Origin: Ascidiella aspersa
Lineage: Eukaryota
Direction of reading: 5' to 3'
Assembly (NCBI GenBank): GCA_963924565.1
Contig: OZ004608.1
Location: forward strand, 34,348,001-34,412,000
Length of the DNA: 64,000 nt
The position numbers were made by a program, and so were the translations under genes. The notes under the pieces were generated by a model that saw only the letters and a list, made by a program, of their open reading frames with translations, was not told the origin of the DNA and searched no databases. Below are positions 14,751-56,751 of the stretch, piece by piece. How positions within the stretch are numbered: position 1 is the first letter of the stretch; every line of letters starts with the position of its first letter.

Positions 14751-16280
14751 GTTGAAAATGCTTGCATTGAATTACACACAAGAAAGGTCACAAACATGCA
14801 ATACCACCTTATATAGGCGCCCTGATTAGAACGTCGCCGCAAACGTAACGACGTAATCCAGCAACACTTTACATTCAAGGCGCCTTTTTCGTTTAATAAA
14901 AAAGGGCATTAAACCAAATTGGACAGCCTGTCCCGGCATAAGCGGGTCTGCTTTCGCTAAACTCCAGGCGCCTATAGGTTTACAACCAGTGAGACGACCG
15001 CATATTTACGGAAGCCGACAATGGAAATCCTTATCTCAGGTGGATCGCGGTACAAGCTAAACCCACACGTGCGTCACAGCTGTATCGCGAGCAACTTGTA
15101 GGCACGAAACTCGCATCTATATTGGGAATCTCGTGCCAAACCGTTCCAGCCTTTTTTTCGCTCCCACACGATGATAGATTTGTAAAGGCGTAGTTACCTT
15201 TGGTCGGGGAAGATTAAAAGCCCTCTACACCTGTGGTGTTTAAACTGAAGATTGCAAGGATGTTTAAAGGGGATGCACAATATATTTAAATACACCGACT
15301 TACAAATTATGTAAATTACGTCAGCCGTAGCGTATCTTTCTAATTGAGCTTTAACGGAGATATTTAATTTGACAGCTTGTGTGCTGCAAATAATTTAAAC
15401 TGCGGGTAAATAAGTATTGATTTGAGAGTTAAAGTATTTAAGTTTGAGATATTCTACTCAGGTGTAACTTAGGTGGTACATCAACACTGTACAAAAGCTC
15501 AAAATGGTACGCGAAAAAAAAAGTTTGGGAATCACTGGTTTAACTCAATAGTTTATGCTACAGACACCTTTACACTTTGAGGCGAAGTGTTCAGAGCTTT
15601 AATTTTCTGTTCCCGCTTGATTAGTCACCAAATGTATTTTTCCCTAATGAAGTCCTGTTCTGTGTACCTTTGCGGCTTTACAAACACAGCTGTGCATCTT
15701 TGAGACCTGAAGATAATTTAAGCCACAACTAAACATGCTGCTAAAGTTGTACTGTTTTTATTATTTTGATTTTATCTTTTTGGCCATTTATACTGTAAAG
15801 TCATACCGAGTATGAAAATGTAGTGGTTTATAGCGGCAAAGTATTAAACGTGTTTGTTGGACTAACTTGGACTTAGATGTTATCAACTCACTCAACTTTA
15901 TCGCAATACAAACCCGTTTGCTTGCTCAAAGTTGCTTTGATGTTTTAGATGATGTGATTAATCAGACAACATTTTATGATTACTTGCATTTGCTTATAGT
16001 GGTTGCACTAGACTTAAAACGCTACCCACGCAATCATCAACATGAGGCCTACATTGTGGTTTCAAGTCTCGCCGTTCGCGCCTCTAAGATAACTACACTA
16101 CATCACATCAGCACCTTTTGATGTGGGCTTTTGATTTGGCTTTTACGTGTCATCACCCGCATACCGAGATAAGGTCTCACTCAAGCAAACATGGCAAGAT
16201 ATTATATCGGTTAAGATGGACCTGCCGATCTTGGACTAATTGCGAAGTTGTGGTGCGATAAATGAAACACATTTCTGAAT

Positions 16281-16375
16281 TTTGGATAATGGTTGGAGGT
16301 TGTATTAAAACGTAGTAAGAATATCAAAGTTCATACAGAAGTAGGTAGCATCTTGAACGTTTCGAATAACTCTTT
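16281..16375 (-). mobile_element. Family P1 degenerate copy
   Basis: ataatggttggaggttgta..cgtagtaagaatatcaaag..catacagaagtaggtagcatcttgaacgtttcgaataactcttt matches the 17523-17722 element. Confidence 0.7.
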
Positions 16376-17522
16376 CGTTTCTGATTATTTTGCAAGCCAT
16401 AAATTTCTAAAAAAAACAAGATATACATATCTTTACAGATATTATGGCATAAGCTAAACAAAGCACATAAGACTAAAAAAAATGTTCCGCCTTACAAAGC
16501 TGACTTTTGAACGATTTAAAAGAATAAATTTCTTGTTATAAAATCATAAAAAAAGTGATTTTTGTATTAATATATGGTAAAAGTCTTAAAACTCGCGTTT
16601 TATTAAATCAGTCCCTTTTTAAAAGTGAGTTATTCTTTTTTGGTCGAATGGACAACTCATTTTGAAATACCTTAAAAGGAAATTCGCTTTACTTGGATTG
16701 CAGACAAACAATAATTGCCAAGCAGATCACTGATACTGCAATGATTATATACAAAACAGCTACTTTGGATGGAATCTGTCTACAGTCCAAACCTACCCTC
16801 CCAAGATCGCCAGCATTTCGTGTTCTGCTGTCTGTGTTTGTTGCTGGCTGCAGCAGTACACAAATCCACCCCCACAAACAGAACTCCAATCCCCCTGACA
16901 GACGCAAAATATTTTATCAGCACAATTCGCTCACACAGCGGTTTCAAATCTAGATGTTTTTCAATATTATGCGTAGTTCCACATACAATACAGCTCGATG
17001 TGGCTCTAACGCACATGACAGTCTGCTATGCATGTACAGGGGATGTTTAAAAAAATCGAATCGGAGTCAATACCCGATGTTAAGTGATAGTATCGGTAAT
17101 CGTCCGGTACTAGGGTAATATTGCCGCCGAAATTGATTATATTTTCAGCCATGATTTGCGATCCAACACAGTGACCTTGAAAGGTGAATGTATCAGAAAA
17201 TAGTCGGGAAATCAACTATAACACCCTAAAACAAATTGTGGCCTAATGTACACATTTTAAAATGCCATTGAAGGTTTCAATACTCTATATTGTTATTTTG
17301 CGCGTATTAGTGACGTCATTCGGTGTCGGTTCGAAAGGCGATACTTTTGGTCCAGAATAGCGGGCATTGGTGTCGGAAAGAAATGTCAAGACTTGACATT
17401 CTTGTAGGGTCTGATAGTTTGGCGTGATAATAAAAAGTCACACCCAACGAAATGTTTGCGCAAAATCAATATTGGGTTTCAAGTTGTTTTGTTGTAAAGA
17501 TTCGAACATCAGTTCACGAAAA

Positions 17523-17722
17523 CGTAATAAGAATATCAAAGCCCATACAGAAGTAGGTATCATTTTGGACGTTTCGAATAACTCTTTATTCATTTTCAAC
17601 ATCTCAACAGATGTTGAAAATGAATAAAGAGTTATTCGAAACGTCCAAAATGATACCTACTTCTGTATGGGCTTTGATATTCTTATTACGTCTTACTACA
17701 ACCTCCAACCATTATGCTCCAA
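17523..17722 (+). mobile_element. Penelope-like fold-back element, family P1, with hammerhead-like core
   Basis: Perfect 83-bp inverted repeat (17522-17604 / 17609-17691), a 31-nt unpaired tail, and a 12-bp TSD agttcacgaaaa (17511-17522, 17723-17734). Core TTGAAAA-T-GAATAA-agag-TTATTC-GAAA-CG-TC. Confidence 0.75.
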
Positions 17723-19993
17723 AGTTCACGAAAAGAAACTCAATTCGGAAAATATCCTGAAATTAACAACAAACCAAGAAAATCCAGTATCTTGAGGCGA
17801 CCCCCAAAAACCTATGGTCTGTTGCATTTCTAAACTTACCAAATGGCAGGGCGAAAAATCGATTACTAGCCTACAAGTATTTTAATAATCGGCTTAAACC
17901 TTATCTTAGCCGAAGTTTAGCCGGAAAATTTTGTAACCGTAAAACCGATGCCATACCGCTTATGCTCGACCAACAACATTTATTTTTTTTGTCGTTTAAG
18001 TACTCTTAGCTAGAAGGTAAAATCTATTTAATTATTCAAGCACAGAAACGAATCCAGTAACATTCGAAATGACTAACCTTGTTTAAGCTCATTCAGGGAT
18101 TCAATTTTTTTTAGATTGTCAACATAAGAACAGTTTTTAGCTGTGAAAGAATGTTTTGATGTATATAGGGTTATTAGCATACAAGAAGGCACCAGATCTA
18201 ACGATAGGCATCTTATTGGTTCACGACTAACATTGAAGATAAAATCAAAATGCCGCAGTAACCTCTATTCCATAGCGGCAATGCACATTGGGCAATTTTC
18301 TTGCTTCAATTTACTAACCAGTGATGAACGCGTGACTCACAGAGATGCGCTAGGCCTGATAAGCTTGTTTTGCAGACAAACTCTTGATCCGGCGAACAAT
18401 GGAAACGCGGGGCTTACCCAACTTTTCGTGCATCGAGGTTTTATCTTTGTTGCAATAATGCGATCTTATTTTTACTAAGCTGGCGATTTTGAGACGATTT
18501 TGTGGGAAAAAGTGGACGCCCAATTTTCGCCGTAATGTTGAACACGTTGTATAAGTCGTGTGAAATTATTTCCGAATTGAAATTATACACCAAATTAATC
18601 GTGCTGTCTTTAATGGATTTTAAAGGGTAATATATCCGATTAGAAAACTTTATTTATTAGAGTAAAATTATATAAATATTAATGCATTTAACTACAAGTT
18701 TCTTAAATTAAAAATGATAGCAACCCATAAGTATTGTTTTTATTAATAACATTAGTTTTGCTGTCTAATGATTGCCATATTAAATACGCAAAAAAACTTT
18801 TTTTGTTATTTAAAAAACTGTAAAAGCCACCAATAACTTAAGAAGCGAATAAATTTCAATTGCGCAGTTTAAAAAAAACTTTCATCGAAACGCCATTAGT
18901 TAAATGTGTTATGCGAACCCAACTAACAATAAAACTAAGTTATAAAGCATTCCCTTTTTGCGTTGTGAAGTACGATTTACCTAAAGAGGTGTTAATAACA
19001 TTTTAGCTAGAACGATGTCCGAAAAATGCGTGGGTGGGAAATACCGATCTTTATCAGAAATGACGGATGTCGGTATGCCTTGTATGTTTGGGGAGATATC
19101 CTATCTCAATGGTAAGATTCCCAACGCTTAGAACATATTTTAATAAAGTGCCCTTAATTTACAGAGAATGGGTTATTCTGAAAGTTACAAGAATGCGTAA
19201 TTATTTGGCTTGCTCTGACTTACAAAAATGTAAAGTCCGATCAAAAAAACGTTTTCTATGTTACCAAGTCTGTTTTTGATTTTTAAAAATACCCGTTGAA
19301 ACATAAGAGCAGCCTACGTTTAAGTGTTTTTGATCCTGACTACTTGCTCGTGCAAAAAATTCGACCTGAATAAATTGAAATGTTTATTTGTTAAAAAGGT
19401 GTTGTTCAAACGAATAAGGAAAACTTAAGTGCGGTGAATTTTGAGACACATGAATTGACACCTTAAGTTAAAAAAAAAGTAAAAAAGTTAATATAAATAA
19501 CAAATGCAAGGAATTAAATCGACAGTCAATAAAACTTTATACAGTTTTGAACACATCTTAGGGGTAAATTTTGTTTTACTAAATCATACTTTATAAGACG
19601 TTACTTATATATAATGACAATCGAATGCCCTAATTCAGTCACTCCGATAGTAACAATATTAGTTTCGCTTTTTAAAGTTCGTAGAAACCATTGTTTCTCG
19701 ACAGTTTTGCCTTTGAAATTAATTAGGCTCAAAAATAAAATTATACATGCCATTGACGTATTCGATTTACTAATTGGAGCTTTTTTGTCTAACTATGATA
19801 CAAGGCTAATCAAAATGATTTTTCTGAAATACTTTAGTTTTGATTAAGGCAAAAAAGAAAAGCCTATTTAAGTTTCTCAAGAACAACTTGCGACCATTGA
19901 GATTCAGTTTAACCCAGGTTAAGAAAAACGCCGCGAGAACAAAAAACGATTAAATTGTCATCTTTAATCAAATACAACGAAATTCGCTTCCAT

Positions 19994-20560
19994 TTATTTC
20001 TTGACCTTTCTCTTGGACAAAATCGTCCTAAAGGAATCCCTCAGTGTTTTCCTCTTCGAAGTATTCGAATCACTCCTCATCATATAATGATCGGGCAGGC
20101 TTCCGTACGGTGACGTCATACGCTCGTGACGTGATAGCACCTTGACGTCACCGTCGTCGTCGAAGAACGAGCGACGCTGCCAAACATCGGTGACATCACG
20201 ATATCTCTGCGGTCTCATTGTGACGTCATTTTGGCTGATTTCGCCCGACGGCTCGAAGGTCGTTGTTCGGCGCACCACCTCGCTTTCGCGTCGCGCGAAC
20301 TCGTCCGAAGGCGAGGCGCGAAACTTTACGAACTCATCCGAAGTAACTCGGGACGCTTCGCCGTTTGAGCGAAGTGTTGAAAGGTCCTGGCTGTTGTTGA
20401 TGGTTTCGGGGGAGGTAAAATGGTTGGAAAACTGCTGGTAACTGGAATTGTCATCGTCTGTGACTCTGGAAACAGTTTTGAAGTTTCTTGTTGAACATTT
20501 TCGGGTAGATTTACACTTACTGCCAGCATTCACTTTTTCGTTTTTACATGACTGAACCAT
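19994..20560 (-). CDS. Orphan Ser/Arg/Asp-rich, probably disordered ORF (188 aa from ATG); either a stand-alone gene or a terminal exon starting at 20465
   Basis: Long, GC-richer ORF in an AT-rich background, ending in a basic tail (KRKTLRDSFRTILSKRKVKK). Candidate acceptor tgtttccag at 20474-20466. No recognised domain. Confidence 0.5.
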   Translation of the reverse strand: MVQSCKNEKVNAGSKCKSTRKCSTRNFKTVSRVTDDDNSSYQQFSNHFTSPETINNSQDLSTLRSNGEASRVTSDEFVKFRASPSDEFARRESEVVRRTTTFEPSGEISQNDVTMRPQRYRDVTDVWQRRSFFDDDGDVKVLSRHERMTSPYGSLPDHYMMRSDSNTSKRKTLRDSFRTILSKRKVKK

Positions 20561-21335
20561 GTTGAAACTTATATGTATACTTTAGAAACGGTCGTGAGTT
20601 CAAACCTCACTAACGGTTAGCTTTATAGCCTTGGCTTGCTTACACGTAAATCCTTACATGTCGAAATTTTGTATAAACCTTTCAAAACGCAACAGGACAG
20701 GCGATCTATTTTTTTACGTGTTGCTTCGTGTGCTAAACTGGGTGTAATATACGTCACGAATTTGACAGAATACACAGGTTCAGCAGTTTGGGTCACGGTT
20801 TAAAGTAAATGTTAGTCATCTTGCGACAAAAAAGTCCAATCCAAGAATAACAGCGATTTTGATGAGATCACCAAGATATCATCATGTCGATATAGTTAGT
20901 CATCGAATGTTGTGGTTAGTCATCAATTAGAGGAGCTTGAACCCCATCACATGCAGAAATAGGAAATACTCACAAACATGGATATATGGTTAGATATGCA
21001 GGCAGTAGGAAATACATTATTGCAGGGTTACTCATGCACTGTGCCTTTCTCATTACAAACAATTTTACCATTTACTCTACAATCTGTGGTTGAAATCACT
21101 ATTAAAAGCTTTTTTGTACGAATCGTGTCGCGTCCATCTGTCTGTGATATTTCGCCTTTCTTGCCTTTTAGAGCTAGTAAATGGCGATAAAAGCCTCAAT
21201 AAAAAGTCCAATATAAAACTAAACATAGTGTATAAATTCGTACCGTTTACAAAACACGGAGTTCATATCAACTGACAAGGGAAATCGCAAATCTACAAGT
21301 CACACACTGTTTCAACAGAATCATCTTGAAAGATA

Positions 21336-22038: not shown

Positions 22039-23341
22039 CTCTGAAACATCGAGCAGCCTATCGGTATCCGAAAAAAATTAATGGACATCATTACTCAAAA
22101 CAACGATTTTTAATTCGCTGCAAATAACAGTTTTGCACTGATCAAACATAGGTTTAAAACTAGGATTTTGTTTGTGTTTTGTTGCTTGTATGCGACACGT
22201 CTCATATGGCTTACTCAGTGCAATGTATTACCCGGTTATGGTTTGTACTTCGCGTAAATATCGATTCAAACTAAATTGTATTTTGAATTAAAAAAGGATT
22301 ATGTTCCCACTTCATTCTTTGTTTCATTCCACGTTCTTTTAATCACAACACCGCTACAGACATAATCTTTAAAATAGCGATGCGGCAATCCCTTTACAAT
22401 CCAACACCTCATGAAAATCTTCCAAAATTCCCCGATACAAATATAGAACCGAAGCGAGCTACTTGGAAAAGAAAAAAGTGTACGTCAGTAAGTTTCTTTA
22501 GGATTGCGAGGAGTTCAGATACGCTGGATACTTTAAGCTTTAATCGGATTTAATTTGCTGATGTTGTGTCAGCTGATCGAAGGCCTTATCCGTTCGGAAT
22601 TTATGCGATGATTGATAGTTTTGGTTGTTGACAAAACAATGGCCATTGTGAGCAATAGAAAGTGATTAAATGGGAGTTGGAAATGCATTTTTTGAAAAAA
22701 ACAAATATATTTTTCTGTTTTGCCAGAAAAGGATTACGGAGAGTTTTTTTAGGCAAATGCACCACCCTTTGAAATCAAATACTCGATGTTGGTCAACTGT
22801 ATTCTGTAATAGAAAAGCAAATATAAAAACCAGGCAAAGTCTTGGCGCTGATTAATTCAAACAAAATGTTGTTTAATTTCGATTTTGTATTAATATTCAA
22901 TTCTTAAATACAGCTTTTTCACCCTGGTAGATTTTTGCGTATGAATGATGTTGAAATGCAGATTTAAAAATGTAAAGTATTCGTGAAACAACAAGCAAAA
23001 TACCCGCAACACATAAGCGTTTGAATCTTTTTCTAAACAAGATTACCCTCTTTTTCTTTATCCATGATTTTTTACACTTAACCGAATGCACAAAAGCGTG
23101 CTTTTCTCAAACGTTTTCTGTGATCATACTTTAACCTGGCACCACGCCATACAATCATTGCCCAAGGCAGTTTGATGGAAATTCAAACCTCAGTCAACAC
23201 AAATAAAGTTCCGGTTCCGTATCATCAAGTTTTCGTCAATTTGGAAAGCAACACCGAAGCCCTTGGGCGGTTTTCGGTAAAAAAAAATTTCGCAGCCAAT
23301 AAGGCTCCCATTTTTACCATTACGCAAATAAAATACCAAGT

Positions 23342-23485
23342 CGTAATAAGAATATCAAATCCCATACTGGAGTAGGTATCATTTTGAACGTTTCAAATAT
23401 CTTAGGTAACTCAGTTATCAGTTAACTGTATGGGCTTTGATATTTTTACTACGTCTTACTGCATTCTTCAACCATTATGCTCCAA
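23342..23485 (+). mobile_element. Family P1 degenerate fold-back copy
   Basis: Same inverted arms and the tail ...caaccattatgctccaa. Confidence 0.7.
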
Positions 23486-24413: not shown

Positions 24414-27400
24414 TTACCTAAGGAACTTTTTGGGGTGTTGCGGGGGCGTTGGCTGCAAGTGCTTGCCAGCTCCGTTACTGTAGTTTCCTGGGGAGGTGGA
24501 ACCGGATCTGATCGGTTCTAACCGGTTTGAGGCGGTTATGGCCGGTTCGAGCGAGTTCATGTTGGGAACGCTGATGAACTGGTTGGCGAAACGCGCTGGC
24601 GCTGAAAGAGGGTTCTGGCCCTTTTTCTGGAATAGAAGCAAATTGTTTTTGTTCAAATCCCTGGCTGTAAGTTGTAGTAGGATGAAGAAAAGTTGCAAGC
24701 TATATAGTCGTAGTAAGAATATCAAAGTCAATACAAAAGTAGGTAGCATTTTGAACGTTTCGAATATCTCTTTAGTCATTTTTAACATTAATTACAGATT
24801 CAAAATCCTACTTATCTACTTCTGTGTTTCATATTCTTACTACGTCCTACTGCAACCTCCAACCGTTATGCTTCGATGCAAGCGTATGTTTACTAAAAAC
24901 GCAAGTGTATATTTTTGCGGCTGATCTGAAATACATTGTCAAATGCGAACATCAAACTCAACTGTGTTTTCTAATACGGCAGCCTAAAACCAATTCTTAG
25001 AATTAGTTACATGATAGAAAATAACAACAGTCCCTGGGCCTTTTGGTGTTATAAATGATAGGCCACGGGAACTATTTTTGCATAAGTTTTGGAAATTCAC
25101 CCCTGGTCCTATTGAACAGTTATAACGTCAATTACAACTGTGCTACATAAACTACATATATATTGGGTAATTGGAATCGCTAAAATTACTTTAAAAACTC
25201 AATGTTGAATGCGACAAACTGTTCCGGATTTGTATTTTAAGTGGCAAGTTTGTAAAGTGACAGTCGCGTCTGATAAAAAGCGGATTCTGGCCCTTTTTCT
25301 GGCAAACAAAGGATCGTACAGTTGTGACTTATAGTTTATCGACGTACAAACAGCAGTTGTTTATCGACGCTATAATGGTTTGAGCTTTCGGTAAAACTCA
25401 GAATAAACAATAAAAGGAGCACACTTATGTAATGAAACACTTCGTATATGCTGGTTTCACACGAATAACAAGAAATGCCTAAAAAAGTTCTATACTTTAG
25501 AAGTCTTTGTGTGTTTTAAAAAAGGGGACTGAAAATGCACTCTCAATATACTCAAAAAAGGGTTTCGGTGAAAAATTTAAAGCGGAAATCCCTATTAAGT
25601 TAAATCAGCACGTGACTGGATTTGAAAGGGCCGCTTCTCAATTGCAAAATCGCGTCTAAATCTTAAATAACGACACGTTGGTTCGGGGGAATTTAAATAT
25701 CGAAGAGTTTTGGTAACAAGTCGAAAGCGAAACGAGTTATTTTAAAAATGTGAGCGAATTTAAAGCACCGTTTCTCAAATGAAAAAGAGCGTCAGACCTT
25801 GCATAATGGCGGGTCGGTTTCGGAAATTTAAAATTTAAAAGGTAAAACAAGTCCTTTCAAGTAACTCCAAAACGTGAACCAATTTAAAAAAAAACGTTTC
25901 TCAATTATACGCGTCGGAGTTTTGAATACTAACAGGTTAATTTTGGATATTTCAAATTTAAAAGCTGAGACCGTTTCTCGAAATAAAAAATCACATCAGA
26001 GGCTTATATACTGACATGATGGTTTTCACAAGTTTTAAAATCAAAATGTGACGATAAAGGGAAATGAGTCGGTAATGAGTCTAAACTAAAGCAAAAACCT
26101 TAAGTTAATCCCAAAATGTGAGGAAATTTAAATGGCGGTTTCTCAATGTGCAAAATATCAAAAACTCGTTAGAGTCTTCCAACTATACTCCGCTGCGGTT
26201 ATCCTAGGATGCAAACGTGTTACCAGATGCGGAAAGTGCTTCTTGCAGCCCCAAGGCAAACTATATGTTGGGAAGTTGTACGAATGAACTTTATCTCGAA
26301 GGTCATCGTTCGTGTAGAACAAAGACCCTGGGCTATTCGTTTGCATGTTGGGATATTTCGAGACGATGTGTAATTCATACAAGGGAAAAGAAGCCACTGT
26401 TGGAAGAATGCGTAGGGTATATTTACCAGTCACGAGTTGTCGATAAGGTGTCACGCGAAAATAGAAATAGATTCATGTTACCTGTGATTCCCGAGAAACC
26501 CAAAACATACGCCATTTTTAAAAGAAAGCTCTAATTACTGAGCAGGAAAAACGTAGCATGCGTGTAAAAAGAGTATATATCTGATTTTACAAAGATTTAA
26601 AAAAACAGGTGTATGTGAAGATTTTAAGTCATTATACCTTTCTATCGCACCTATGCGCACTACAATTTTTTTTTGGTTTAACTGATATCAGTCTGTCTAT
26701 TAAGGATTTGAATCAAGAGTACTATAATGTGTGCGGTTATCGTCGGTCAATACTTCAGAGGGATTGACCATAGTCATTCATATAATTAACCAGATGTAAT
26801 GACTTATGTTTCTAATTGAGTCAAGCGCACTTGTTGTTCTGTATTGCCTTTTATATTCTTACAGGTCATTTCAAAATGACCTGTCTACAACAATGATTAA
26901 CTAATGCTTAAACTAGTATATGTTTCAGGCTCGTCAGATCAACGTAACTATCCAGTATTTCCAACTCTTATTCGTTTTAAAACAAAGAGGAAAGATTATG
27001 TCTAAAGTGAAGTCATGAACCGATTCAAATCAAAGCCATTGTTTGAAACATTCGACAACAACGCAGGGTTGTTGTTACGTCACATTGGTGTATGTCTACT
27101 CAGTACTCACCTTAACTCGTGGGTTGAGCACACCGACATTGGGCGCCGTGCTGAAGACTTTGTTGAAGTTGGTCTCTCGGTTTACCAACTCGCGCTGGAA
27201 GTACTTTTTGTCATCCTAAAAAATAAAATACATTTCGTTATTAATTCGGGGAAAATTTCTAGTCAAAGCGCAGAGCTTCTACGACTTTTTGATGTGACAA
27301 GTTAGTCACATTTTTTGAGGTTTTCGCAAGCCAGTAATATTGACAAGTCAGTTCTGAATAACTTAACATCCAATTAAGTGAAAAGACACGCATGGCATTT

Positions 27401-30400
27401 ACAAACAGTGACTTAATCAAGTGCAAGCATAACCGTTAAAGTTTTCAGTGTTAAAATTTTGAAGCAAAGCTTATATAAAGTGTGAAGTTAAGCCTTAATT
27501 AATAAGTTGTGGATGGAGAATCAGGCTTTAATATTAGAAAAGCAAAAATAGTTTTGACCCCAAGCCTTGAACATAATAATATCGCACCAGTGCAATGGCA
27601 CCTTGTCACAGAATACTAGCTTATTGAAGGCGAAAAGGGTAACTTACTAGGTCCTGAAGCGTATGATTGCAGAAGTACGCTAATTTTCCGTTAACAATCT
27701 TGTTAGACATGACTATAATGACAAGAAAGTCGAATAGTCTGACAACAAGCGTCAAACGTAAGAATCAACTCACAATAAGCTTCTGCATTTGTTATACAAG
27801 ACACTTAGGAAAAAATTTCTCGTTTAAACGCAGAACTTAGGGTGATTTCTTGATACAGAAATCTTTGTATATGGCCGTATTTGTATAATTCTAAATATAG
27901 GAATCAGGTGGCACTGTATATAAAGACAAATTGTATTTGATTCTCGACAAGCTTTCGCACAACCGTGCTTCATCAGGTCAATGTATAAAATCAAAGTATA
28001 TAAAGGTTTTATACTTTGACCTGATGAAGCACGGTTGTGCGAAAGCTTGTCGAGAATCAAATACAATTTGTCTTTATACAGTGCCACCTGATTCCTCTAT
28101 CTTGATACAGAAAGTCAGTCACATTTGTTGAGGTTTTGGTAAGGCAGTATTACAAAACAAATCATTTGTAAATCACTCTCAGAACAAATCTCAACCGTCA
28201 GAATAACGCATAAAATGACTCACAATAAGCTTCTGCATTTGGTTCTCCCGTTCGATGACCAGCTCCTTGAGTTGATTGATCATGTCAACATCTTCCGGAC
28301 GACTCTCTCGTCTCTCGAATCGTTCCTCAGCCTCTCGCAATCTGGGAGGAAGAAGAAAAACAGGATTAAATCTGTTTCTTCGGCAAAAACTCAAGCAAGC
28401 GAGACAACAACAACCTTTTAGTTAAAATATTAAAAAGACACCCTTTTGACATTTGGAAACAATCCATAACCTTTAATAACCAAGAAAAAGCAAATCTTTA
28501 AACGGAAAGTAAAATGTAGTTCCCATTTTAAACATAGAAAAATAAAAAAGTCTGGGAGAATAGAAAAAACTACCTCATTTACACATCCGAAACCAAATCA
28601 AAATCACTTTTCATGTGGAGAGTAAAATCATTTTTATGTTTTATGTGGGTGGAGAGTTTATGGATAAACGATATTTATAAAATTAAAGTTAACAAAAAAT
28701 CAACAACGTACGCGACAGTAAGAGAAGAGAGCTTATCTTTAAACAATAGCAGCAACTTATGTATAAAGAATATTTTATTTTTTTATGTATAAAATAATAT
28801 TTAAAACACAAAAAAATCAACAACGTACGCGATATAAGAAATGGACAGTTTGTCTTTACACTATATAAAAAATTAATAGTTAATAAAAAAAAAGCAGCAA
28901 CTTACGCGATATTCAGGGTTGAGAGTTTATCCTTGAGTGCTTCAGTCGCCCGGTTGAAATCATTCACCATCGCTTGCTTCTGACGAATCACCTCCGCCTC
29001 GAATCGATCCTGCTTCCCCTGGAACTTTGTAAGCAGTTCTTCTTCCCTCCTGCGCATCTCCACGTTGGCTTCGCTCCTCACCCGGAGGATCTCGTGTCCT
29101 GAGGAGAAAGACGGTCATTGTGTGGCACTAGGATGCAGTGTTGTAATGACTTAAATCAATGACTTGACTTAACTTGACTTAACTTGACTTAACTTGACTT
29201 AACTTGACTTAACTTGACTTAACTTGACTTAACTTGACTTAACTTGACTTAACTTGACTTAACTTGACTTAACTTGACTTAACTTGACTTAACTTGACTT
29301 AACTTGACTTAACTTGACTTAACTTGACTTAACTTGACTTAACTTGACTTAACTTAACTTGACTTACTTAAGTGCATTTAAGTCACTGTTTTCAAATGAC
29401 TTAACTTGACTTAAGTCTTGTGGACAAATGACTTGGGTTAAAATGAAGTGATTTCCTGAGTATTTTTGTTATAAAACTGTGCTATTTATCCTAATTTTTG
29501 CAAATAAAATAATTTGCACTCGTGTCCTGAGGAGGAAGACGATCATTGTGTGGATAAAAAAATCAAGCTGAGCAAGAGTATGTGTTTGAAAGAGTAATAT
29601 ACAGTACACAGGGTGATTTTATTTTCTGCCATGTGTAAGCTATGGCTCTTTTATGGAAAAACTGAAAAATGTGGCGCTGGGTATCTGACCAGTCCACCCA
29701 ACACTAGTGGTACGCGCGCATGTTTAAGATCTTATAAAAATTTTCGGAAATTTAACGTAATTCTGTATAACTGTGGCAATAATGTTTTCTAATACTAAAT
29801 TAAACCGGTCAATCTAAAATCTAAAATTTGCAGCTTGCTGTAGGATCGGAAAATATATTTTTTTGGTTTTAAAAAACATAAATACATTTCATCAAAGTTG
29901 TTTGTTTTAAAACCGGGTGGTGCACAACGGCAAGAAAAAAGGTACCAAGTCAGAGCAGAGGTGTAGCCATGCAGGGTATTTTGCGCCAGGGGGCAAACTA
30001 TAAAATTGGCGCCCCTCCTTCATGTTTAATCACATTTTCTATTACAATAACATAATATACCTTACTTTAAACGTAAAAACGATTCACATTTTAATACAAC
30101 ATGGTATTTAAAGAAAAATCAGCCTCATTTTGGCTTTTGAAAGCCTCATTTTGGCGCCCCTGTACCTTGGCGCCCGGGGACATATGTACCCCACCGCACC
30201 CCCCTAGCTACGCCTCTAAGTCAGAGTGTCTTAACCTTATGTACGGCGACCTGAATACTAAGCGTATGTATAAGTAAATATAACAGAAAAGCGTTGGCAG
30301 ATTTAGGGGAGAAAAGGGTTAACACATTGTAGTCGGAAATAAGTAACCTTGTAAAATCATCCGACCAAACAAGATATAATATGTTGTTGTGGTCCAGCAT

Positions 30401-36400: not shown

Positions 36401-39400
36401 GTCACTCCCCCTGGTCATTAATTGCACTCCTGAAGTTCCCGTAACAACATTCTTATTTCCAGCTAGTTATCCATAGGTTTTTACTTTGACTTAGTTAGTA
36501 TTTTACTCTTGAATAGTTCGGCCTTCTCATCTGTTTAAACATTGTGTAACTACGCGCATAAGTCGTAGTCCATAGGTTTATGTGTATATTGTCGCTCTTT
36601 GTGGATAACCGATGGGTTTAAGTTAGGAATGAACATTTGGTCTTCCATGGAAGCATTGAACTAAAATGCGGTTGGTTCTTTTTGAAGTTCCCCGAAACAG
36701 AATACTTATTTTCTGAGCATCCTTAGGTTTAACTATGCTTGGCTAGTTTGTAAGTTTTGTACAAAAATCCGTACTTCCATGTTAAACCTCATAATGATGT
36801 ATCCTCTTCACAGGAAGCTCAACAAATTTAAAGACATAATTACATTTCACAACTTATAATGTTGATAGATATTTTAGGGTCCCGAATCTCACCGAGGTCG
36901 TTCCGATAGTCCTCCTCTTTCTTCTCAATTTCTCCCATCTTCTCCCTTCTCATCTGATCCCTGAGAGCATCCAGGGCGATCTGCTGAGCGCGCATCTGGG
37001 AGTGCATCTCCTCCCTGGAACAATCAGCTCAAGTTAGTTCGCAGTTAATACTCATGTTAGCTTAAGCAACGATTTACTAAAAAGGCCTTAGGTAATCTTT
37101 GGAGCATAATGGTGGAGGTTGTAGCAAGACGCAGTACAAATAACAAAGCCCATACAGAAGAAGGTATCATTTTGAATGACGTTGAAAATGAATACAGAGT
37201 TATTCCAAACGTTCAAAAAGATACCTATACTTCTGCGTGGGCTTTGATATTTTTACTACGCCTTAGAATGATTTACCAAAATAAGTTAGTTCGCAGTTTC
37301 CACTCAGACGGTTGAGTGAGGCGAAAATGCAGACTTTGAAGCATTTTATTATTATTTTTAATGAAAAAAGGATATGTTTAGCGATGACTTGAAAAAGTTT
37401 AAAGGTAAACATATTTGTCCAATGTGACCGATCTGTTCTGTCTATTGATTTGGAATCCCCTTACATGTATACTGCTGAGTTTCGAAGAGAAATCAAACTG
37501 TAAATAGCATTTTCTAGGGGTATCTTTTACTTATTATTTCAGGAAAAATCGTAAATATGGGATTTGCTACGTCTTTCTGCAACCTAAACCAAAATAACGT
37601 CGAGGATGACTCGTTTTATCAGAACATTAGAAGAATGATACCAAGATTTATTTATATGTATGGAAAGTCACCTGTGTCCCGACTGAAGACGACTTTCCAG
37701 GTTGCGAAATTCACTTTCCTTGCGCTGCTCCAGTGCGGCGAGCGCCATCTTGTGAGAGCCCTCTAAATGTTCCACCTGGAAAGTTTAATGAGAACATTTG
37801 TCGATACTCACCTAAAAATCTATTTTATATTAATTTATGTAAATATGTGTTGCAAAAAGTTCCTTTTAGCAGAAGTTACGCCCGTCAAAACTTTAAGAGA
37901 CCGCGCAACATATTTTAATGCTTTGATATAAATTATATGAACCAGGAAATATCACTATATCCATAATGACCATAATAGTAATATTCCAAGAGCCTCTGGT
38001 AAAGTAGTTGGTATGAGTACGGATTTAAGTGATAAAATAAATATATTCTGTGGTAAACGTTTTAATTTTTATTGTTTTCAAAATTAGACTGACCTTCATT
38101 TAATCTAGGAAGCTAAAGGGGTCCGTCATATGATTAAGTTTGAGAGCCACTGCTTTGGGAAATACTTAAAAATCAGTGTTGATTTCAGTTTTCTTAGGTT
38201 ATTTTCAAGGTGTTTACTTTTGAATTTAACCTTCTCACCTTGGAAGAGAATTGATCCTCCTTCTCCTGCGCCTCGCTCCGGAGCCTTCTCTCCAGATCTC
38301 CCATGCTACTGCTCCTCTCTTCCAACCGGCGCTCCATCTCTCTCCGCTCCTCCTCGCTCTTGTGACGCATTTCGGACATCTGTGACGAAACAATTGGTTT
38401 TAATTTTGAAAAATGCTTTAAGGCAGTTGGTACTGTTCAGGGTTAGGGTGGGCAATGGGTGGGGTTCGAATTGGTAAGGGAGTTAGTGGTGAAGTCAGGG
38501 GCAGAATTTTGGAGTACGTAAAAGGTGGTTGGATCTTACTTCTCTTAGATTTGAGCTAGCCCTCTTTGAAGGGAAAGTAATATACGGGCAGGAGCCTTCG
38601 ATTTGGTGCCAAGTTTATTTATCACAAAAACGATTCAAACAGATTAAGTTGGGCATTGCGCTGTTATTCTAACCGACAAAACTTCTCAAAAAACTTAATA
38701 AAATTATAAAGTTAACATTACAAGCATTATAACATTATGAATTCATTAATGGCCAATGCATAACATTAAGATCACGGGCCAAAATACGAGTTAGCGGGAC
38801 AGTATAGTTGGACCACGCTGATTAAGTGAAAACAAGAGCATGTTGGTTGAAAACACGGGTTGGTAAACTTGGCTAATTACGATTATGCAGAACAGGTTTT
38901 ATTATAAAATTCAGCCACCACCCACCGAAATGAGAATAAAATCAACGTCAGAACAAAACACGGTTCGAAACACGACTACGGACAAAGTAAAGATTTTGGA
39001 ATAAGGACCTTGAGCCCATTAGAAGAAAACTAAATCGCCAGAACAAGATTTAAACAAGTAAAAACAGCAGCAGCATGGTCGAACCTGAGCGGCGAGTTGT
39101 CTGATCTGCTCCTCCCACCCCTCTTTAGCTGCTCTCATCTCCTCCTCTTTCCTCTGCTCCAAATCCCTCGTCATTTCACGTCGTTCGTCCACGTGCTGTG
39201 ACGCCAGGCGGCTCTGGAGCTCGGAAAGTTTCAACCTGCAGAACGTAACCAACGTAGGGATGTGAGCGAGTTTGAACGCATAGCAGCTAGAAAGCTTTAG
39301 TAAAGTCTGTTTTTGTTGGTATTTTTTCATAGTCGTGTTTGGAGTGGTGCTGTTTTAAACCGTAACGTTTTAAACGTCCGACTTAGAAGCAGTAAATTTT

Positions 39401-42400
39401 ATTGGGCCAAAATTAATCTCATTGACTTAACATTGCAGGCTTTCTAATGTATTGCAATCTACTAGAACTGGTGTACGTTGTTTAGTTATTTTATCATTTT
39501 TGATCTTTTTTTTAGTAATTAGAAATACATTTCACCTAACTGAATACAAATTTGACTTTAAGCGTAAAACAGAAAATCAAGTTCAAGTTTTTGACGATTT
39601 CTCAAACACACTGTTTATTATTCGATTTCACAGGATATGGCTTTGTGTTTTTTCTACTAGAAATTATTGCTTTGATATTTCAATTTCTCAGGTCAAAATT
39701 CATCTAATCGAAATTTCTGCAACCTTAAATATAAGTCATCACAATGCCCGAACAATGAAGTCATTCTTAGTTTTCTTACGTCATTCTTTCTTCCCACTTT
39801 TCGTCCAACTCCTTCCTCAGCCCCTCTAGCGCACTCTGGTGGTCGGAGTGCAAGCACGACACCTTGCGGTCGTGTTCGGCCTGCATATGCTTCATGTCCC
39901 TCCTAAAAGTAAAAATGATTTTCAAATTGCAAGTCGTGGAACCAAGAGGGTCCTTAGTTGTTTAAGGGAAAATTTCGTAATTCAAACAGAGTTGTTTCAA
40001 TATTTTTGTTTAAAAAATATCTTTTTAAATTTTTGTGCTACAGGTTGCAGATTCAAACCTTTATTTCAAAATATGATCCAAGGCAATGTATTTCGTGCAA
40101 AGTACGTTTTACTAATTGAAAAACATATGTAAATGTTACAATCTGAGAATAATGCAGGTAATAGCTCTCTTGGAAAAGTATTTTGTTGCTAATTCAGTAA
40201 AAAGCCACCTGGTGGTACTGGTTATTCTTACAATATAATTTCAGTTAAAATAGCTCTACATTTATTCCTCGACTCGTATTGTCTTCGTGCTGTAAACCTG
40301 ATTTAACTAAGCACAAGTTTACAAAAATCAACAACATCCGAAACCACGTAATGAACATGATTTGTTCACAGCTTTAAATAAACACAACAAACACACATAA
40401 AAATTGGTGCCCCACCTGACTTGGTCTGCACTGGTTTCCACCGTTCTTCTTCGCGCGTCAGAATCGCGGACCTCGTTCTCAAGGTCACCGATGCGCGCCC
40501 GAAGGTCACCGATGCGCGTGCTTGCGTCGCCCAGGCCGCTCTCGTGCGTGCTGATGACGTCGGTGAGCCGCGCGATCTGCGAAAAAAATGACGTCACATG
40601 ATCGGATTTTTTTTGTCTGTTAAACACAACATTTAGTGTATCACTGTTAAAGGGGTTGTCTTCTTTGCAATTTCCAAATATTCAATTCCGGTACTGCTCA
40701 GTTTTTTTTCTGTTCAGTAAGTATTGGGCATGTTACCGAGAAATGATTATGTTTTTCATGAGTTATAGTTGAATATATCAATCAAATTTTGTATAAGTTA
40801 AATTGGCACGAATTAAAATTAGAATATCAACTCAAGTAAATGATACCTACTGTATGGGCTTTGATATTCTTATTACGTCTTACTACAACCTCCAACCATT
40901 ATGCTCCAAAACTCAAATAGATTGATTTTTCCTGTAGTTATTTGTAAAGATTTGTAGGTTCTATATAAAAATCAAAATAAATAATAAACAGTTATATTGC
41001 TAAAGTGAAAATACAACAAAACTAGATAAGTGTTTTTCATGGGTTGATTTTGGGGCTGTGGGTTGTAGGCTTGATATTAATCCAGTTAATTTGAGGCATT
41101 ATTGAAATTAAATGGTTTATTTTATATTTTTTTATTTTTCAATGGTTTTGGGTTCAACTACAAATTGTAGGGCAAATATGAAAACTGGAACTTATACAGC
41201 ATTATCATTAACATTATCGAATCATCAACGACTTTGTTTAACTAACAAGTGATTTGGTAGAATAATGGTGTGATGGGAAATGTGTAGTGTCGCTGTCAAG
41301 AGCGCTTCTCATAGTTGAAGGACCCTCAGTATATTTGTTGACTCCAATCGTATATAAGTGTATTTAAATGCGTGGACTACAATAGTAGAAAATCACTATT
41401 TCCGAGTTTAGATGTTTTAAACATTAAAAACCCTTCGTCAGCTTTAGAGATATTTTAAAATTTAAAGATAGGCAAAAACGGGGGCAAATGTATTGTTTAA
41501 CATTAAATTATGCTTTTCTAATTTATGTTTTCACCTCTGAATTTTGTTGTATAAATTTTACACAAATTTTACAAACGGATCTTGCAAATGAATGATTTGA
41601 AGTTAAATTATGCTTAGCTAATTTAATTTTTCACTATAGTTTTATTTTCCTAAAGTAGATTAGACATATAAAAAAAAAACATATTTTCTTCAGGAAAAAA
41701 GTAAGCAACGTTTGCAAAACAACAATTGCAATCTCACACTCACACCTTACTTACAATCTCGTAAGGCAACGTAAAGCTTGTTTAACAAATAACAATCAGG
41801 CTGTGTGACGTCACAGTGGCACTTGGTTGTGAAGTCACGCAAGGCATAGAGCCCGGATGCGAGTTCCAGCTAATGTTATCAATTTACGATAATCCGTTCG
41901 TAACCTTCCAGCACACACCTAATTAAACTGGCGACTTGGAAAGGAATGCTGTGTATGTCGTGTGCGGTTTAAGAAGGCGTTTTGCGTCTCAGAGTAAAAT
42001 CTCTGAGATTTAACGATTTTAATGTGTTAATGAGAAATGTCTGATACTTGACATTATACCCCGTTAACGATACCCGATATTTAAGACAATATACCGCAAT
42101 CCGTTCCAACACCAAATTATGTCATCACTATAATCAAACAAGCAAAATATTTAAAATTGAAACGTTTAAAGGTAAAGTTTATTAGCCCAAATTTGCTTCA
42201 CCGTGTAGAACTCAGTTACTTATAGTTGTAAACCTACTACTTCTTTATGATAAATTCAACTTTTAAGGTAGAACCGCTACATTGGATCGAAAATTTTGGC
42301 TAGAACGAATTATTTTATTAATTTGGTATCAAAAATTAGTTATTTATCAATATGAAGGCAATTTTTTTGCTAATTTTTTTTAGTGAAAGGGGGGACAACC

Positions 42401-45400
42401 ACGAGTTATGTTTAGCCTTAGCAAGCACTTTCCTTAAAGATTCACGGCACATTTTAACGTCGCTTCTGTCAAAGTTCACTTTTTAATATACAAATCTACA
42501 TTAAAATGGCAGCTGTCTTACTCCGAGAATCTGGCGACACCCTGTACACCTATACTGCCACCATATTATCGTACAATTCAGTATAAACGGCAATGCGTTA
42601 AGGCGTAGTAAGAATATCAAAGCCAACAAAGGTATTTTTTTACATAATAATTAGCCAAAAATTTTATTTAGCGCTAAGAAGTTCAGTTACTCGCAGTTAT
42701 TCGCTTTCTGTTTATTGATAAATTTACTTCTCAAGGTACAAATCGCTACATTTTATGTTACCCAGTTATTCCCCTTCTGTTTTTTACATTTATCTTTTAA
42801 GGCGGAAATCGATGCATTTGATCCAAAAATCATGGCTGAATTTCCTATATTAATTTGGCATCGGATAGGCACCGATACCACCCGAGTATCGGGCGAGTAC
42901 CGCTAGTACTACTTGGTATCGGGTATCGGTTCCGATCCGATATAATCGGACATCGCTTCAATTTGAACCTTTGACCTTGAAAAGAGTAAAATATTTTGAC
43001 CACTCATGGAGTCCATTACCTCTTGTTGAGCAGTCTTTAGTTCCTTGGAGATGAGGTCCCTTTCTTCCTCCAGCTTCCCGATGGCGGAGGACTTTTCCTC
43101 CTCAAAGTTGGATGTCTCCCTCATGATCCGATCCTGCATTTCGCGGAGGAGCTTGTCCATAGCGTCCTGCGTCTGAGAGGAAGAAGAAGAAGAAGACTTG
43201 AAATATACCGGCCGAAATCTGTCTGCCTGACCAGAATTATAGTGCAAGCAAGCAAGGCTAGAAAATCAACTATCCTGCAGTGAGGTTCGAACTCACGACC
43301 TCCACCATACCGGGACCATTGCCCGACCAACTGAGTTAACCACGTTCGTAATGGGGCAAATCGAGAAACAACCATAGCACCGTTGCCTGCTGCATCCTGT
43401 TCGTAAAACTAGCCTGTGGTTAGGTTCTAACTCACGACCTTCGGTCAAACCGGGACCGTCGCTCAACCAACTGAGCTATTAGGATTATAGTGTATGATAT
43501 AAGTAAGGCCTTGAAATACATTTAGTAACCCTTTACAAACGGTTTTTAACCTGAGGTAGACAAACCACTCAAGCTACGCGGAGGCAATTTAGTTCTTATG
43601 CGGGGTGTATAAAAATTTACGCCAGTGCAATTTTTAGCTTTCAGGGTGATTTGTACTACAGCGTACTGGTGCTTAACTTGTGAGAAACGTTTTACTTGTG
43701 CTTACACCAACAGCTTTGAAATCTTATACGGAAGTTCAATAGTTGGCATTTTGTTGCTGCACGTGAGATTTTCGGCAAAACTACTGCCTATGAAATGCGG
43801 TATAAAATGATTTCATTCCTAAATTTTCACAAGCGCAATTGATTAAAATAAAAAAGTAATGCTTTTTTAGTGGTTGAGCGTAAACTGCCTTTAGCGCAAG
43901 GAAAGTTAGCTAACTTTATGGTTATTTTGCTCTTTTCTAAAAAAATACATTTTAAAGTGAAACGCTGAGTATATCGCAAACCGTGGATCAAATGCACAAG
44001 TTATTTTGGTATCGGATCGGCACCGATACACTACCCTAGTATCGGACTAGTAACGATACTGCACTTAACAAAGGGTTTTGCCTCCGATCCGATATTATCG
44101 GACAAGTTTGAATATACGCGGTTCAGACACAAAACACAACAGTCTTCGAAGTTAAAATACCACGCTTTTAGATAAGTTTCAGTAGCGCTTCTGTCTTAAG
44201 CTGAATACTTTCTTAACATCTAAAAAAGAGTGATACGCTGCCATTAAAGTCTTCAAAAAATATCCGTTAAATGGGTAAAGAGACCAATTTTACGCTTCGG
44301 ATGACAACTTAGTGAGTAGATTAGAGTAATTCTGTGTCAATTTGCGTGCAGCAAATATGTTTAAAACAAAAACGGCCTGGTCGTTCGAGGCCTTCAATTT
44401 TAACCATTTCAAATTGGTTCAACTGCGGAGAAAAATTTAACTCTAAACTAACCCAATTCAACCTTTTCTCTTGATATGGAAGTTTCTTGATCTCCCAAGC
44501 GCGTGCAATCAATTTATTTTTACTTGGACGCCAATCTTTGTCGACATTTATATACTACTGGTGCATTGTCGTTTTGGACAAGAAACGAAAAAAAATGCTA
44601 AAAAATGGGCGTTACAATAAAGAAATATTCGAAAAACAGCTGATGTTCGCAGGATGCGACAGTGATGCCATAAACGGTGCATTGCTTTGTCGGATCGCCG
44701 GTTGTCACATTAGCACCGGGACACAATGGGAAACTGACACGCGAAGTTGTGTGTGGACACTAAAGGCACTCAAGGCATACAGGTGCAGCTATTGCTGGTT
44801 TGTGGGGCTTTTTTGCGGTCTTTGTGGTAAATTACTCGAGCGTATGTAGGAAACGACCGCAAAAATCAGGAGCTTTGTTTAAGAATTTCTTAATACAGTG
44901 GTTGTTATTTATTTCGGGGGTGTCATTACCCTGAGAAAAAGTTAATCAAAAAATAATAATCAGTTTTTTTTAAACATTTATGGTCATTTTTTTTTTAAAC
45001 ATCTAAAATTTACCCCATACAAATCTTAAATTACCCACCCCTCAAAAAAATCTCCAGAAATTACTGCTTTAGCCTTAATATTTTTAATTCGTATTTAGAA
45101 ATTGCACATGTAGCGCAGGGATTAAAAGTGATAACAGGTTTTAATAGACTAAAAACTTTAAAGTGTTCGTCGAATTATTCGACTTATCTAATGTGTATAA
45201 CACGTGGGTTTGAACTTGTTGTAAGTTAGAAATTAACTCTTTTGACCAATCGATGTTATACTACGATTTGTGTTTACGACTTGGGTATACAATATTTATT
45301 TTACCGACAACGATTCATTCAATCAAAGTATGAAACAAGCGATAAACAGAACCTGGGTCGGTGTTGAAAAAACTGTTCACGAGTTTTTATTAGTTTTCCT

Positions 45401-48400
45401 TATTGTTTGACAGTTTTCGATAACATGTTTCGGTATGAAGTTAGGCGTAGACGTAAAAACCTAAAACTGCATTTTTAATTCCAAAAATATGCTTTTTGCA
45501 CTTTATAAGGGTGAAGTACAAGCATTTAATACAACAGGAACGGAATATAATAAGCTATTATTGTCAAATCGTGATCAAACGAAGCAATTCCTTAACATCC
45601 TATAATAATTGACTCTAATCGTTTGTCACAGTATTGGCCTTAAAACCGCAGCCGTATAACTAGGTCGCGTGAACCGAGAAATATTTCAAGTTACGTCATT
45701 GTTCATCGTTCACGGTTGATCGAGCGTACAGCCGACACCGTAGAGACAATCGAAACCATTGTTCAGTCACAATATAATGCGTGTCAACAATGTTCGGTTA
45801 GGTGCGCTAGACTAAGTGGCTACCGTCTTGAAACGAAAACAAAACATTTTGTTATGTAAGCTTATTTTGACTTATATTTACGACGGACAACTTGTATTGC
45901 GTGATTGTGGGTGTTACATTCCTTATCGGTGGGTAAAAAGTCAGAGTACAGAGTGTTTTTGACGTGTGTTTATGACACACGTGTTTTGTGTGATTGTGGG
46001 TGCCACATTCTTTGTCGACGGGTAAAATTCATACTACAAGATATAAAATCATGGTTTTGGAGTATTTGGACTAGAAAATAAAAATATTGGCTTTTTAAAC
46101 AACAAACTAATGAATCTCAAGTACTTCAGTCTAAAAAATCGCGGATAGCAAGTTTTTTTAACCAAAACAAAAAAATCATGGATACAGATACAGAGAATTT
46201 AAGCCTAGTTTATCCGTGTTAATTTAACACAGAAAAACTAACGACATTAATATAGGGACAGTCTAGTAAAATATTAACATATAATAAAATTATCGCCATA
46301 ATTAAGCAAAGGATTACCATAAATAGATTTGTTTCTGCCGATTCGTAGTACACAAAGGCGTTCATTATAAAACTTTTAGTCAGATGTTTGTTTAAATTCC
46401 ATTGCCAAATATTTCAGTAACATACAAAAAAATAATTTCCGGGCAATTGCTTGGCCTAAAATTCGTAAAGTACATTGAGGCTCAATTTCATCTACTTAAA
46501 AACTGAAGTCAAGGCCTCGAATTTGTTGGAATAACAAAAGGCGTGCCTCAAAGCCCACAGGGTCAAATTATCGAAAACGAGCTTTGAATTTGTTTTGCGA
46601 AAGAAAACTAGGCAATTGCCCTGAATAAGCCGACGGCAATTTGTTGCCTTAAACCGAAATTCTGGAGCCGGCTAAAATCAACTGGTACTTTACTCGATTT
46701 CACGTGTGGGATTTGTTGTTTTGGAAAATCGCCTGGACTTAGCTATAACCGGCAATGGGGTTAACCTTAAACCTACACGTTATCAGCGAAAAATTAGTTC
46801 TTTGCACCTAAAAATTTCCGCTAGAAAATATTATGGAATATTGCAAGACACAAGGATACCTATTCTTTGGTAAAAAGTAAAATCTTGGCAATTGATTTAC
46901 GAATTTGGGGTGAAAAGTCAAGCCATTTATAAATAGAGTTGAACGTAAAGCATATTGTCTAGACTCTAGAGGTTGTAGTTAGACGTTAAATAAACATCAA
47001 AGCCCATAGATAAGTAGGCAGCATTTTTGTGAGGTGTTAAAACAAATAAAAATTATTTGGAACATAATACTACCTACTTCTGTATGGGATTATTTATGGT
47101 TTGACATGCATTGTAAAAAGAACAGTTTAAAAAAATGCATGTGGTTTGTAGAATGGGTCACTTTCCTAATCTTTAAAAAGCAAATGCAGATTGTATATAA
47201 ACCGTAGGATTTCGGGATTAACAGGCTTTCAACAAACAAAGCCTTGAGCAAGTTTGTTAGCATTATATGCCACAGCTAATGGAGTCAAATGCTGCTTTTC
47301 AACGTTTTCCCAGAAGCACCGCAAGCTTTAACGTATTTGTTTATATAAACATCAGCGCCGGGTTTTAAATCTAGTCTAAGCAATACGCCGGTTCGAGGAT
47401 TATTTAGGCCAAGGCTTATTATAAGGAGATCAACTTTCTTGAAATGAGGCCAACCAACAGTCAAGTGAGCGCTTTGCGGTCCTCCACATAAAGATTCAAC
47501 TTGTTTGTATTAGCAGTAAATAGCAAAAACACAAAATGTATTTACGCACAAAACTTAGAATTAATGAATTAATTAAAAAAAAAAGTAAAAAAAAAATGTT
47601 AAATGAAAACACTTAAATTCAACCAAAGTCATTCGGTTAAATTAAGTCAAAGTCAAGTAATTTGTCTTAACGCCATAAGTCGAGTCAAGCTATTTAACTA
47701 AAACGACTTAAGTCAAGTCAAGTCATTTGAAACAGTGATTTAAGTGCAGTAAAGTCATTGACTTAAGTCACTTTCACACTGATATTATGAGATCAAATAT
47801 CTTAAAATAAGGCCAACCAACAGCAAAGTGAGCGCTTTACGGCGGGCGCACTTGAACCTTTCAAAGGCGAAAGGAGATTATCTGCTTTAGCGTCATAACT
47901 CCACTTTCAATCCACTTTTACCACTACGATCTTTGAACTTGCGCTATTTGAGCTTTCCAGTTTGAAAGGTCCTCTAATTGGTTTCGGATATACGTTTGCT
48001 CGTTTGCGGTCAACGCAAAGTAGAACAGTAAACGTTATTTACTTTTGTGCTTTTAAGGCGGCAAAATATAGTGTTTACATACCAGTGGGCTAAATCGAAA
48101 TTACCGAAGTGACAGTTATTGGGTTTTTCAGCTTTATTTTCAAGTTTCTAAACCCAAGAGTCGAATCTGGTGAGGTATATAACTAGATCTAAAATATCTT
48201 TTGTGCTTTTTTTGAACTTTTAGGTGTATTGTGTCAATCGCACTTCAACCCCTTAAATTTTCACTTGTGCTAAAATGACAAACTCTAACTTAGAAAAACG
48301 AATAGCTCAATATCAAGGGTGGAAGTTGGTTGATCACGTATTTTTAAACTGTATTAACTTTTGGGTAAATGACATGAGTTTGAATCAAGTCATTCACTTA

Positions 48401-56586: not shown

Positions 56587-56751
56587 AAAATGTATTACTG
56601 CAATAACTGTTGGGTTGTGTCGGGTAGTGCTATTGTTTACTTGAAATAACCAAGATTTAAATTTATACCAAATATTCTTATAATTTGTTTTAATATTTAG
56701 CTTTTTGCATAGTATTTTAACTTGAACAGTGAACTGTGCAAAATTGGTAAT

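Follow-up and report, generated by a model that had tools for sequence, protein, structure and literature searches.

Fold-back insertions in the Ascidiella aspersa genome and the 5' end of a Penelope-like retrotransposon

We analyzed a 64,000-nucleotide stretch of the Ascidiella aspersa genome (assembly GCA_963924565.1, contig OZ004608.1, positions 34,348,001 to 34,412,000 of the forward strand; "the window" below, in whose coordinates all positions are given). It contains, at 17511–17734, a fold-back insertion, here called P1, in which a perfect inverted repeat carries a hammerhead ribozyme motif, and the locus raises the question of what such a hairpin is and how it came to be made. Our answer is that P1 is a pair of head-to-head copies of the 5' end of a Penelope-like element (PLE), produced by two primings of one uncut and likely capped sense RNA; to this explanation as a whole we assign a probability of about 0.7. 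Its parts are of unequal strength and are graded separately below.

The insertion and its parent element

The window copy of P1 has two perfect inverted arms of 83 bp (17522–17604 and 17609–17691) separated by a CAAC loop, a 31-nt tail (17692–17722), and a 12-bp direct repeat on its two sides (17511–17522 and 17723–17734). The original prediction, made from the window's letters, was of a perfect inverted repeat and a 31-nt tail between 12-bp target site duplications (TSDs), and its coordinates are borne out by an empty site: a 3952-nt contig of run X2, from another sample, joins 17510 straight to 17723 and has a single copy of the repeat, which shows the 12-bp repeat to be a true TSD and the insertion to be polymorphic. 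The fold-back had also been given as 83 bp long; the arms are indeed perfect over that length, but element sequence makes up only 81 of the 83 bp, the innermost 2 bp being absent from the parent element. From left to right the insertion consists of the left TSD copy; an inverted, tail-less arm (17522–17602, minus strand) equivalent to parent positions +1 to +81, which has 17522 in common with the TSD and a full hammerhead motif on the minus strand; a junction filler (17603–17610) not present in the parent, in which 17603 and 17610 are an extra G at -1 of each arm, probably a copy of an mRNA cap; a direct arm (17611–17722, plus strand) equivalent to parent +1 to +112, the first 37 PLE codons; and the right TSD copy, whose first 4 bases also match the parent (microhomology), so that 17611–17726 correspond to +1 to +116 of the parent ORF. 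The direct arm contains a minimal type I hammerhead motif (17612–17647, plus strand; predicted cut after C17645) and ends in the tail, which lies between two putative start sites of reverse transcription, +81 and about +112 to +116 (compare PMC11167929). One raw RNA run had no reads on the unique flanks of this copy.

A search of the 309-Mb genome with the right arm gave 1222 candidates; the 40 that were scored are all 100% identical to it, and some run on into coding sequence. At one of these loci, L061, which is 100% identical to 17611–17722, a 2666-bp unit in partial tandem has an intact ORF of 840 amino acids, with a reverse transcriptase (RT) followed by a GIY-YIG endonuclease (EN); the 2666-bp unit is also found at L147, and the genome has two intact parent copies, which differ from each other at 8 nt. 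The domains are RVT_1 at residues 406–554 (E = 1.8e-9) and GIY-YIG at 742–779 (E = 7e-4), the latter match being, at 20.2 bits, under the Pfam cut-off of 22.6, with the motifs GVIY742 and YIG755 present. According to PMC8557442, EN+ PLEs are marked by a CCHH zinc finger with two cysteines between GIY and YIG, and the parent has C749 and C751 in that place and histidines at 770 and 785–792. Other EN+ PLE features that it shares are a single ORF with RT and C-terminal GIY-YIG, a partial tandem that forms pseudo-LTRs (pLTRs), a tail on one end, and a TSD. No CX2-5CxxC linker was found between RT and EN (parent residues 541–745), and by the linker rule of PMC8557442 the parent is classed as Penelope/Poseidon-like. 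The three ATGs at +1, +10 and +40 are all in frame, and by eye it is the +40 ATG that the N-termini of homologues match.

It had been suggested that longer copies joined to an RT plus GIY-YIG ORF be sought, and the two copies of the intact 840-aa ORF are exactly that. Since the stub matches exactly the first 112 nt of this ORF, P1 is, to judge from the sequence, the head of an autonomous PLE and not a self-standing family, and the insertion is almost certainly two head-to-head copies of that element's 5' end. The original prediction of an abundant, recently active PLE-derived family is sustained by the twice-intact parent ORF and the polymorphic insertion; what must be given up is the idea of a family of its own. 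Exact copies of the head (+1 to +42) number 205 and of the tail (+69 to +107) 605 genome-wide, compared with eight near-identical matches that cover a parent protein query along its full 300 residues. Two further loci contain related frames: at L215 (C9:23.486–23.496 Mb) the P1 parent is present as four units in tandem, spaced 2671 bp apart, with frames of 816 and 698 aa that lack the normal C-terminus, and at L214 (C3:7.036 Mb) lies a more remote PLE frame, the third, of 815 aa and 25% identity, where a motif scan of 5 kb found no hammerhead.

At least seven further P1 pieces had been predicted in the window, most with the same fixed tail end; we find seven, five of them with the tail end exact or within a few bases (those at 16.3, 23.4, 24.8, 37.2 and 40.9 kb, not those at 42.6 and 47.0 kb) and none with an intact hammerhead core. 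They are an older solo piece from +16 to the tail end (16272–16375, minus strand, about 88–91% identical); an older two-arm piece with inverted +20 to +84 and direct +53 to +112 (23338–23485); another with inverted +1 to +83, direct +44 to +108 and a broken core (24706–24872), whose inverted arm has an A to C change at +43; a third in the opposite orientation, also with a broken core (37093–37265); a solo piece from +38 to +113 (40838–40910, plus strand, 96% identical); a short tail-less piece from +60 to +85 (42599–42624, minus strand); and an old two-arm piece, 76–83% identical, with a broken core (46969–47091).

The window has several other features. A second fold-back family (27890–28105) has the canonical core CUGAUGA, an extra A, GAAA-GC-UU and a helix I of 5–6 bp on both arms; it has 1989 genome candidates and two 3' ends about 35 nt apart, and no parent ORF was seen in 30 loci. 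Nested inverted repeats at 56314–56591 (71 bp at 97% and 47 bp at 81%) contain no hammerhead by motif scan. Probable host exons lie at 10198–11583 (plus strand, a long Thr-rich, mucin-like frame), 19994–20581 (minus strand, a Ser/Arg-rich frame) and 52544–53281 (minus strand, a coiled-coil-like frame).

Copy ends, paired arms and the mode of copying

Copy ends were tabulated for 100 of the 605 tail matches, those that come first along the genome, a few duplicated loci being retained. The direct arms end at +110 to +121 (28 of them at +113), 65 copies have an inverted arm, most of these ending at +74 to +86, and 61 have a TSD, with a mode of 12 bp. Of the direct arms, 29 have their start precisely at +1, and in 26 of those the -1 base is a G in place of the parent's T; among arms truncated at +2 to +65 a G occurs in 12 of 47 cases (P = 6e-8), a control that is imperfect because its base must mismatch the parent. 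The G is likewise seen in inverted arms (9 of 13, against 5 of 37) and in 11 of 12 solo copies, and genome-wide the -1 base of the 205 heads is G in 97, the parent's T in 62, A in 12 and, by subtraction, C in 34. A TATA-like box, TATATATA, begins at -32, 32 nt before +1. An extra G at +1 ends is as expected from copying an mRNA cap, and full-length L1 insertions carry an extra G that has been ascribed to the cap (PMC11702581); it could also be added by the RT without template at any fixed RNA end. No extra G was seen in 30 similarity-picked loci of the second window family at 28 kb, and we found no literature on cap-derived G or twin priming in PLEs among open-access titles and abstracts. In about 6% of RNA run X6 the depth over the parent ORF is 0–3, and reads of the head are from both strands, with 94% continuing into unrelated sequence.

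Arm pairing was scored in 65 inserts chosen without regard to the tail, of which 49 are head-to-head and 46 of those classifiable. A tailed arm faces a tail-less one in 41 of the 46 (P = 2e-8), the others being three with two short arms and two with two tails. We somewhat favour, as the process behind such pairs, twofold target-primed reverse transcription of a single sense RNA, uncut and likely capped. A promoter lying in the upstream unit, within its 3' UTR, such as has been described for the Penelope partial tandem (PMC2377424), would give a capped RNA that begins at +1; the PLE enzyme would cut the two target strands about 12 bp apart; and each target end would be primed at one of the tail borders (about +80 and about +113) of one RNA. 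Priming inside the 5' pLTR would give short cDNAs; these would extend as far as the cap and then be end-joined. There is a biochemical parallel in the PLE of an anole, whose enzyme both cuts and extends the two strands, initiates at a pair of internal positions flanking the tail, uses uncleaved RNA, and is predicted to be a dimer (PMC11167929). A fuller version, which we advance tentatively and at slightly less than even odds, is that a PLE dimer holds one capped sense RNA and primes twice, one target end per tail border, the stubs being cap-terminated palindromes, hundreds of them, that result from internal priming on the 5' pLTR. Retroviral strong-stop DNA is the counterpart that we propose for them. 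If this is true, the stubs preserve the start site and the cap along with the two sites of priming and the 12-bp stagger, and would decide whether the template of head-to-head PLE insertions is sense or antisense.

The two arms of an insert tend to have the same variants: at the polymorphic +35 (C or T) they agree in 27 of 32 pairs and disagree in five, against a background of 4%, and the rare A49G, where found, is in both arms (3 of 3). Such concordance would also fit a single cDNA (or an antisense template, as proposed for the Adineta PLEs) that folds back and primes its own second arm, which the endonuclease then trims at about +80. Self-priming on an antisense template has been proposed for PLEs (PMC3846280) and the tail ascribed to EN-mediated resolution (PMC8557442), and the symmetric 2-bp filler around the 4-nt loop of the window copy could be a snap-back. 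We nevertheless consider this origin of the inverted arm unlikely. Of 58 two-arm inserts, 26 have a tail-less arm that extends further 5' than the tailed one (the tailed arm goes further in 16), an outcome not obtainable from a tailed cDNA without later loss; an end fixed at +1 and bearing an extra G, on whichever arm, is in keeping with a sense, capped template; and the junction fillers vary among copies and are often asymmetric.

Concordant arms also fit two separate RNAs from one source locus, each copied at one break end, and L1 insertions made from two RNAs are known (PMC11702581). The five discordant pairs at +35 point in that direction, as does an A to C change at parent +43 (window 17653) found in eight direct, tailed arms and in no inverted, tail-less arm of the 58 two-arm inserts, a post hoc observation. 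By itself, however, a supply of two RNAs does not account for the use of one start site by each arm in 41 of 46 pairs, and we judge it as improbable as self-priming.

The hammerhead motif

The core of the window motif reads UUGAAAA (17614–17620), which in the standard numbering of hammerhead positions gives a U3-A8 pair. Helix II has 6 bp (17622–17627 with 17632–17637) and an AGAG loop, the second strand continues as GAAA-CG-UC, a palindromic ACGU stands in place of helix III, and helix I has 2 bp. The original prediction had the core, the 6-bp helix II, the GAAA-CG-UH and the helix I of about 2 bp right, and overlooked an unpaired U between A9 and G10.1. With this U as the extra nucleotide, the motif has all the features of the minimal (type I) hammerheads of PLEs, namely the core boxes, a 3-8 pair, an extra nucleotide after A9, a G10.1-C11.1 pair, a palindromic stem III and UH. 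At E up to 10 Rfam gave no hammerhead match in the window, its models having missed minimal motifs of this type.

The corresponding position in a sister PLE family of this genome is occupied by a C3-G8 motif, and 6 of its 8 pairs show double changes relative to the P1 parent. We also scanned 77 metagenome loci of related ORFs, leaving free positions 3 and 8, the extra base, H17 and helix I, and obtained 31 distinct motifs, against 0.6 in shuffles. Twenty-eight of the 31 are in the sense orientation, 28 have G10.1-C11.1 and 24 a palindromic stem III, and the 3-8 pair is U-A in 14 and C-G in 13 (27 of 31 together); one covariation count is partly circular, as its rows were chosen by the motif scan. 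The motif is, from these comparisons of related sequences, under selection in the parent. The U3-A8 pair, which had been taken for a compensatory variant, does covary across families; as a variant it is not unusual, being common beside related ORFs (14 of 31 motifs) and already reported for Schistosoma PLEs (PMC4209133). The sister family (L217 and L218, at C7:11.30 Mb and C3:20.86 Mb) has long open frames with 41% identity over the query, and its A9-U-G AUG is in frame. In both families here A9-U-G10.1 forms an in-frame AUG, and we rejected it as a general start codon: in the metagenome relatives none of 25 such AUGs opens a frame of more than 72 codons, and the +40 match of homologous N-termini (above) agrees.

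A monomer fold of the motif is not favoured (z = 0.24; -0.2 kcal/mol when constrained), and PLE hammerheads have been reported to cleave as dimers (Lunse et al., via PMC6765202). The parent hammerhead may cut only as a dimer or with the help of protein, and that of the stub would be a passenger, buried in the fold-back if transcribed at all. A different role, in which the hammerhead cuts the RNA in vivo and sets the unit that is copied, through a retrozyme-like or circular intermediate, could draw on the conserved, covarying motif and on the 4 direct and 2 inverted ends that we initially saw at +36. For the P1 stubs this is very improbable and largely refuted: the cut site lies within 205 exact copies, the stubs occur singly or head-to-head and not in tandem arrays, and copy ends show no excess there in a matched genome-wide test, which counted 3 true junctions at +36 beside 3 insertions at +46 and no more than 1 at +28. 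The apparent cluster of ends at +36 to +38 dissolved on inspection, since of 10 matches at +36 six are a CA-insertion variant, one is a small deletion and three are true junctions; a wider end pattern (368 matches) is dominated by old diverged copies and was left out of the counts. P1 also falls outside the non-LTR retrozymes, whose non-coding repeats are arrayed head-to-tail in tandem and contain a type I hammerhead apiece (bioRxiv 10.64898/2026.07.22.740005), in that its copies are solo or head-to-head and its parent is coding.

The CA of the insertion variant, seen in L329, L330, L333, L334, L336 and L337, falls precisely where the ribozyme is predicted to cut, and both C and T are found at +35 among its carriers. 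The insertion disrupts the reading frame from +1 and from +10 and leaves that from +40 unbroken, and loose RNA ends at this spot resemble it.

Lastly, the perfect inverted repeat and an Rfam mir-944 match of 46.7 bits might point to a MITE, a fold-back DNA transposon or a microRNA hairpin whose resemblance to a hammerhead is fortuitous. This reading can safely be dismissed: the match is far under the gathering score of 100 and typical of any palindrome, the arms are asymmetric with a one-sided tail and variable centres, and the exact match to an RT ORF and the variable 5' truncation refute the symmetric terminal repeats and fixed structure of such transposons.

P1 among known systems

The hairpin and the U3-A8 motif of P1 are ordinary features of PLEs, and the value of the family lies in its copy ends. 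The formation of head-to-head PLE insertions has been left open (PMC3846280), and the steps after initiation are described as not yet validated (PMC11167929); the end statistics make one such open step of PLE replication testable. The family is young, its parent is intact and its near-identical stubs number in the hundreds; it makes specific predictions, namely that the RNA is uncut and begins with a cap at +1 and that each target end has one priming site, and the intact parent enzyme is usable for in vitro work.

The motif resembles the minimal hammerheads of metazoan pLTRs in its extra nucleotide after A9, G10.1-C11.1, palindromic 15.2/16.2 and long helix II; it has U3-A8 in common with the Schistosoma motif and the 2-bp helix I with that of D. 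virilis. Those hammerheads also occur as opposite-strand pairs on truncated PLEs, and nothing categorical separates P1 from them in the comparisons that PMC4209133 affords. No intron was seen at the helix I border of P1. Among EN+ PLEs (PMC3846280, PMC8557442, PMC2377424), inverted-pLTR insertions likewise have an inverted, 5'-truncated copy beside a direct copy, and a TSD; a 30–40-bp tail on one end and partial tandems with a promoter in the upstream 3' UTR are further points of likeness. Unlike these insertions, most P1 inserts are reduced to the 112-nt head, and the P1 parent has an upstream TATA-like box where D. virilis Penelope has a TATA-less internal promoter. The P1 end data favour a sense template, as against the antisense self-priming of PMC3846280.

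The closest biochemical comparison is with PAc, the Poseidon of Anolis carolinensis (PMC11167929). In both elements the hammerhead overlaps the start of the reading frame (in PAc the predicted cut lies 26 nt past the AUG that stands where stem II begins, and in P1 the ATG is at +10 and the cut after +35), two internal start sites, putative in P1, bound the tail inside the ORF, the targets are AT-rich, and the template is (in P1, probably) uncleaved RNA. They differ in that P1 has U3-A8 and PAc C3-G8, and in that the P1 evidence is genomic and that for PAc biochemical; P1 shows the pairing of arms by start site, one to each, as well as the extra G, neither of which is among the features described for PAc in the portion of that paper used here. 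Finally, P1 as explained here parallels the twin priming of L1 (PMC11702581), with both target ends primed, a discrete TSD, an end-joined centre and an extra G at full-length 5' ends. L1 inversions, however, scarcely overlap and their second priming site varies, whereas in P1 both sites are fixed and the arms copy the same 81 nt, and the product is a palindrome.
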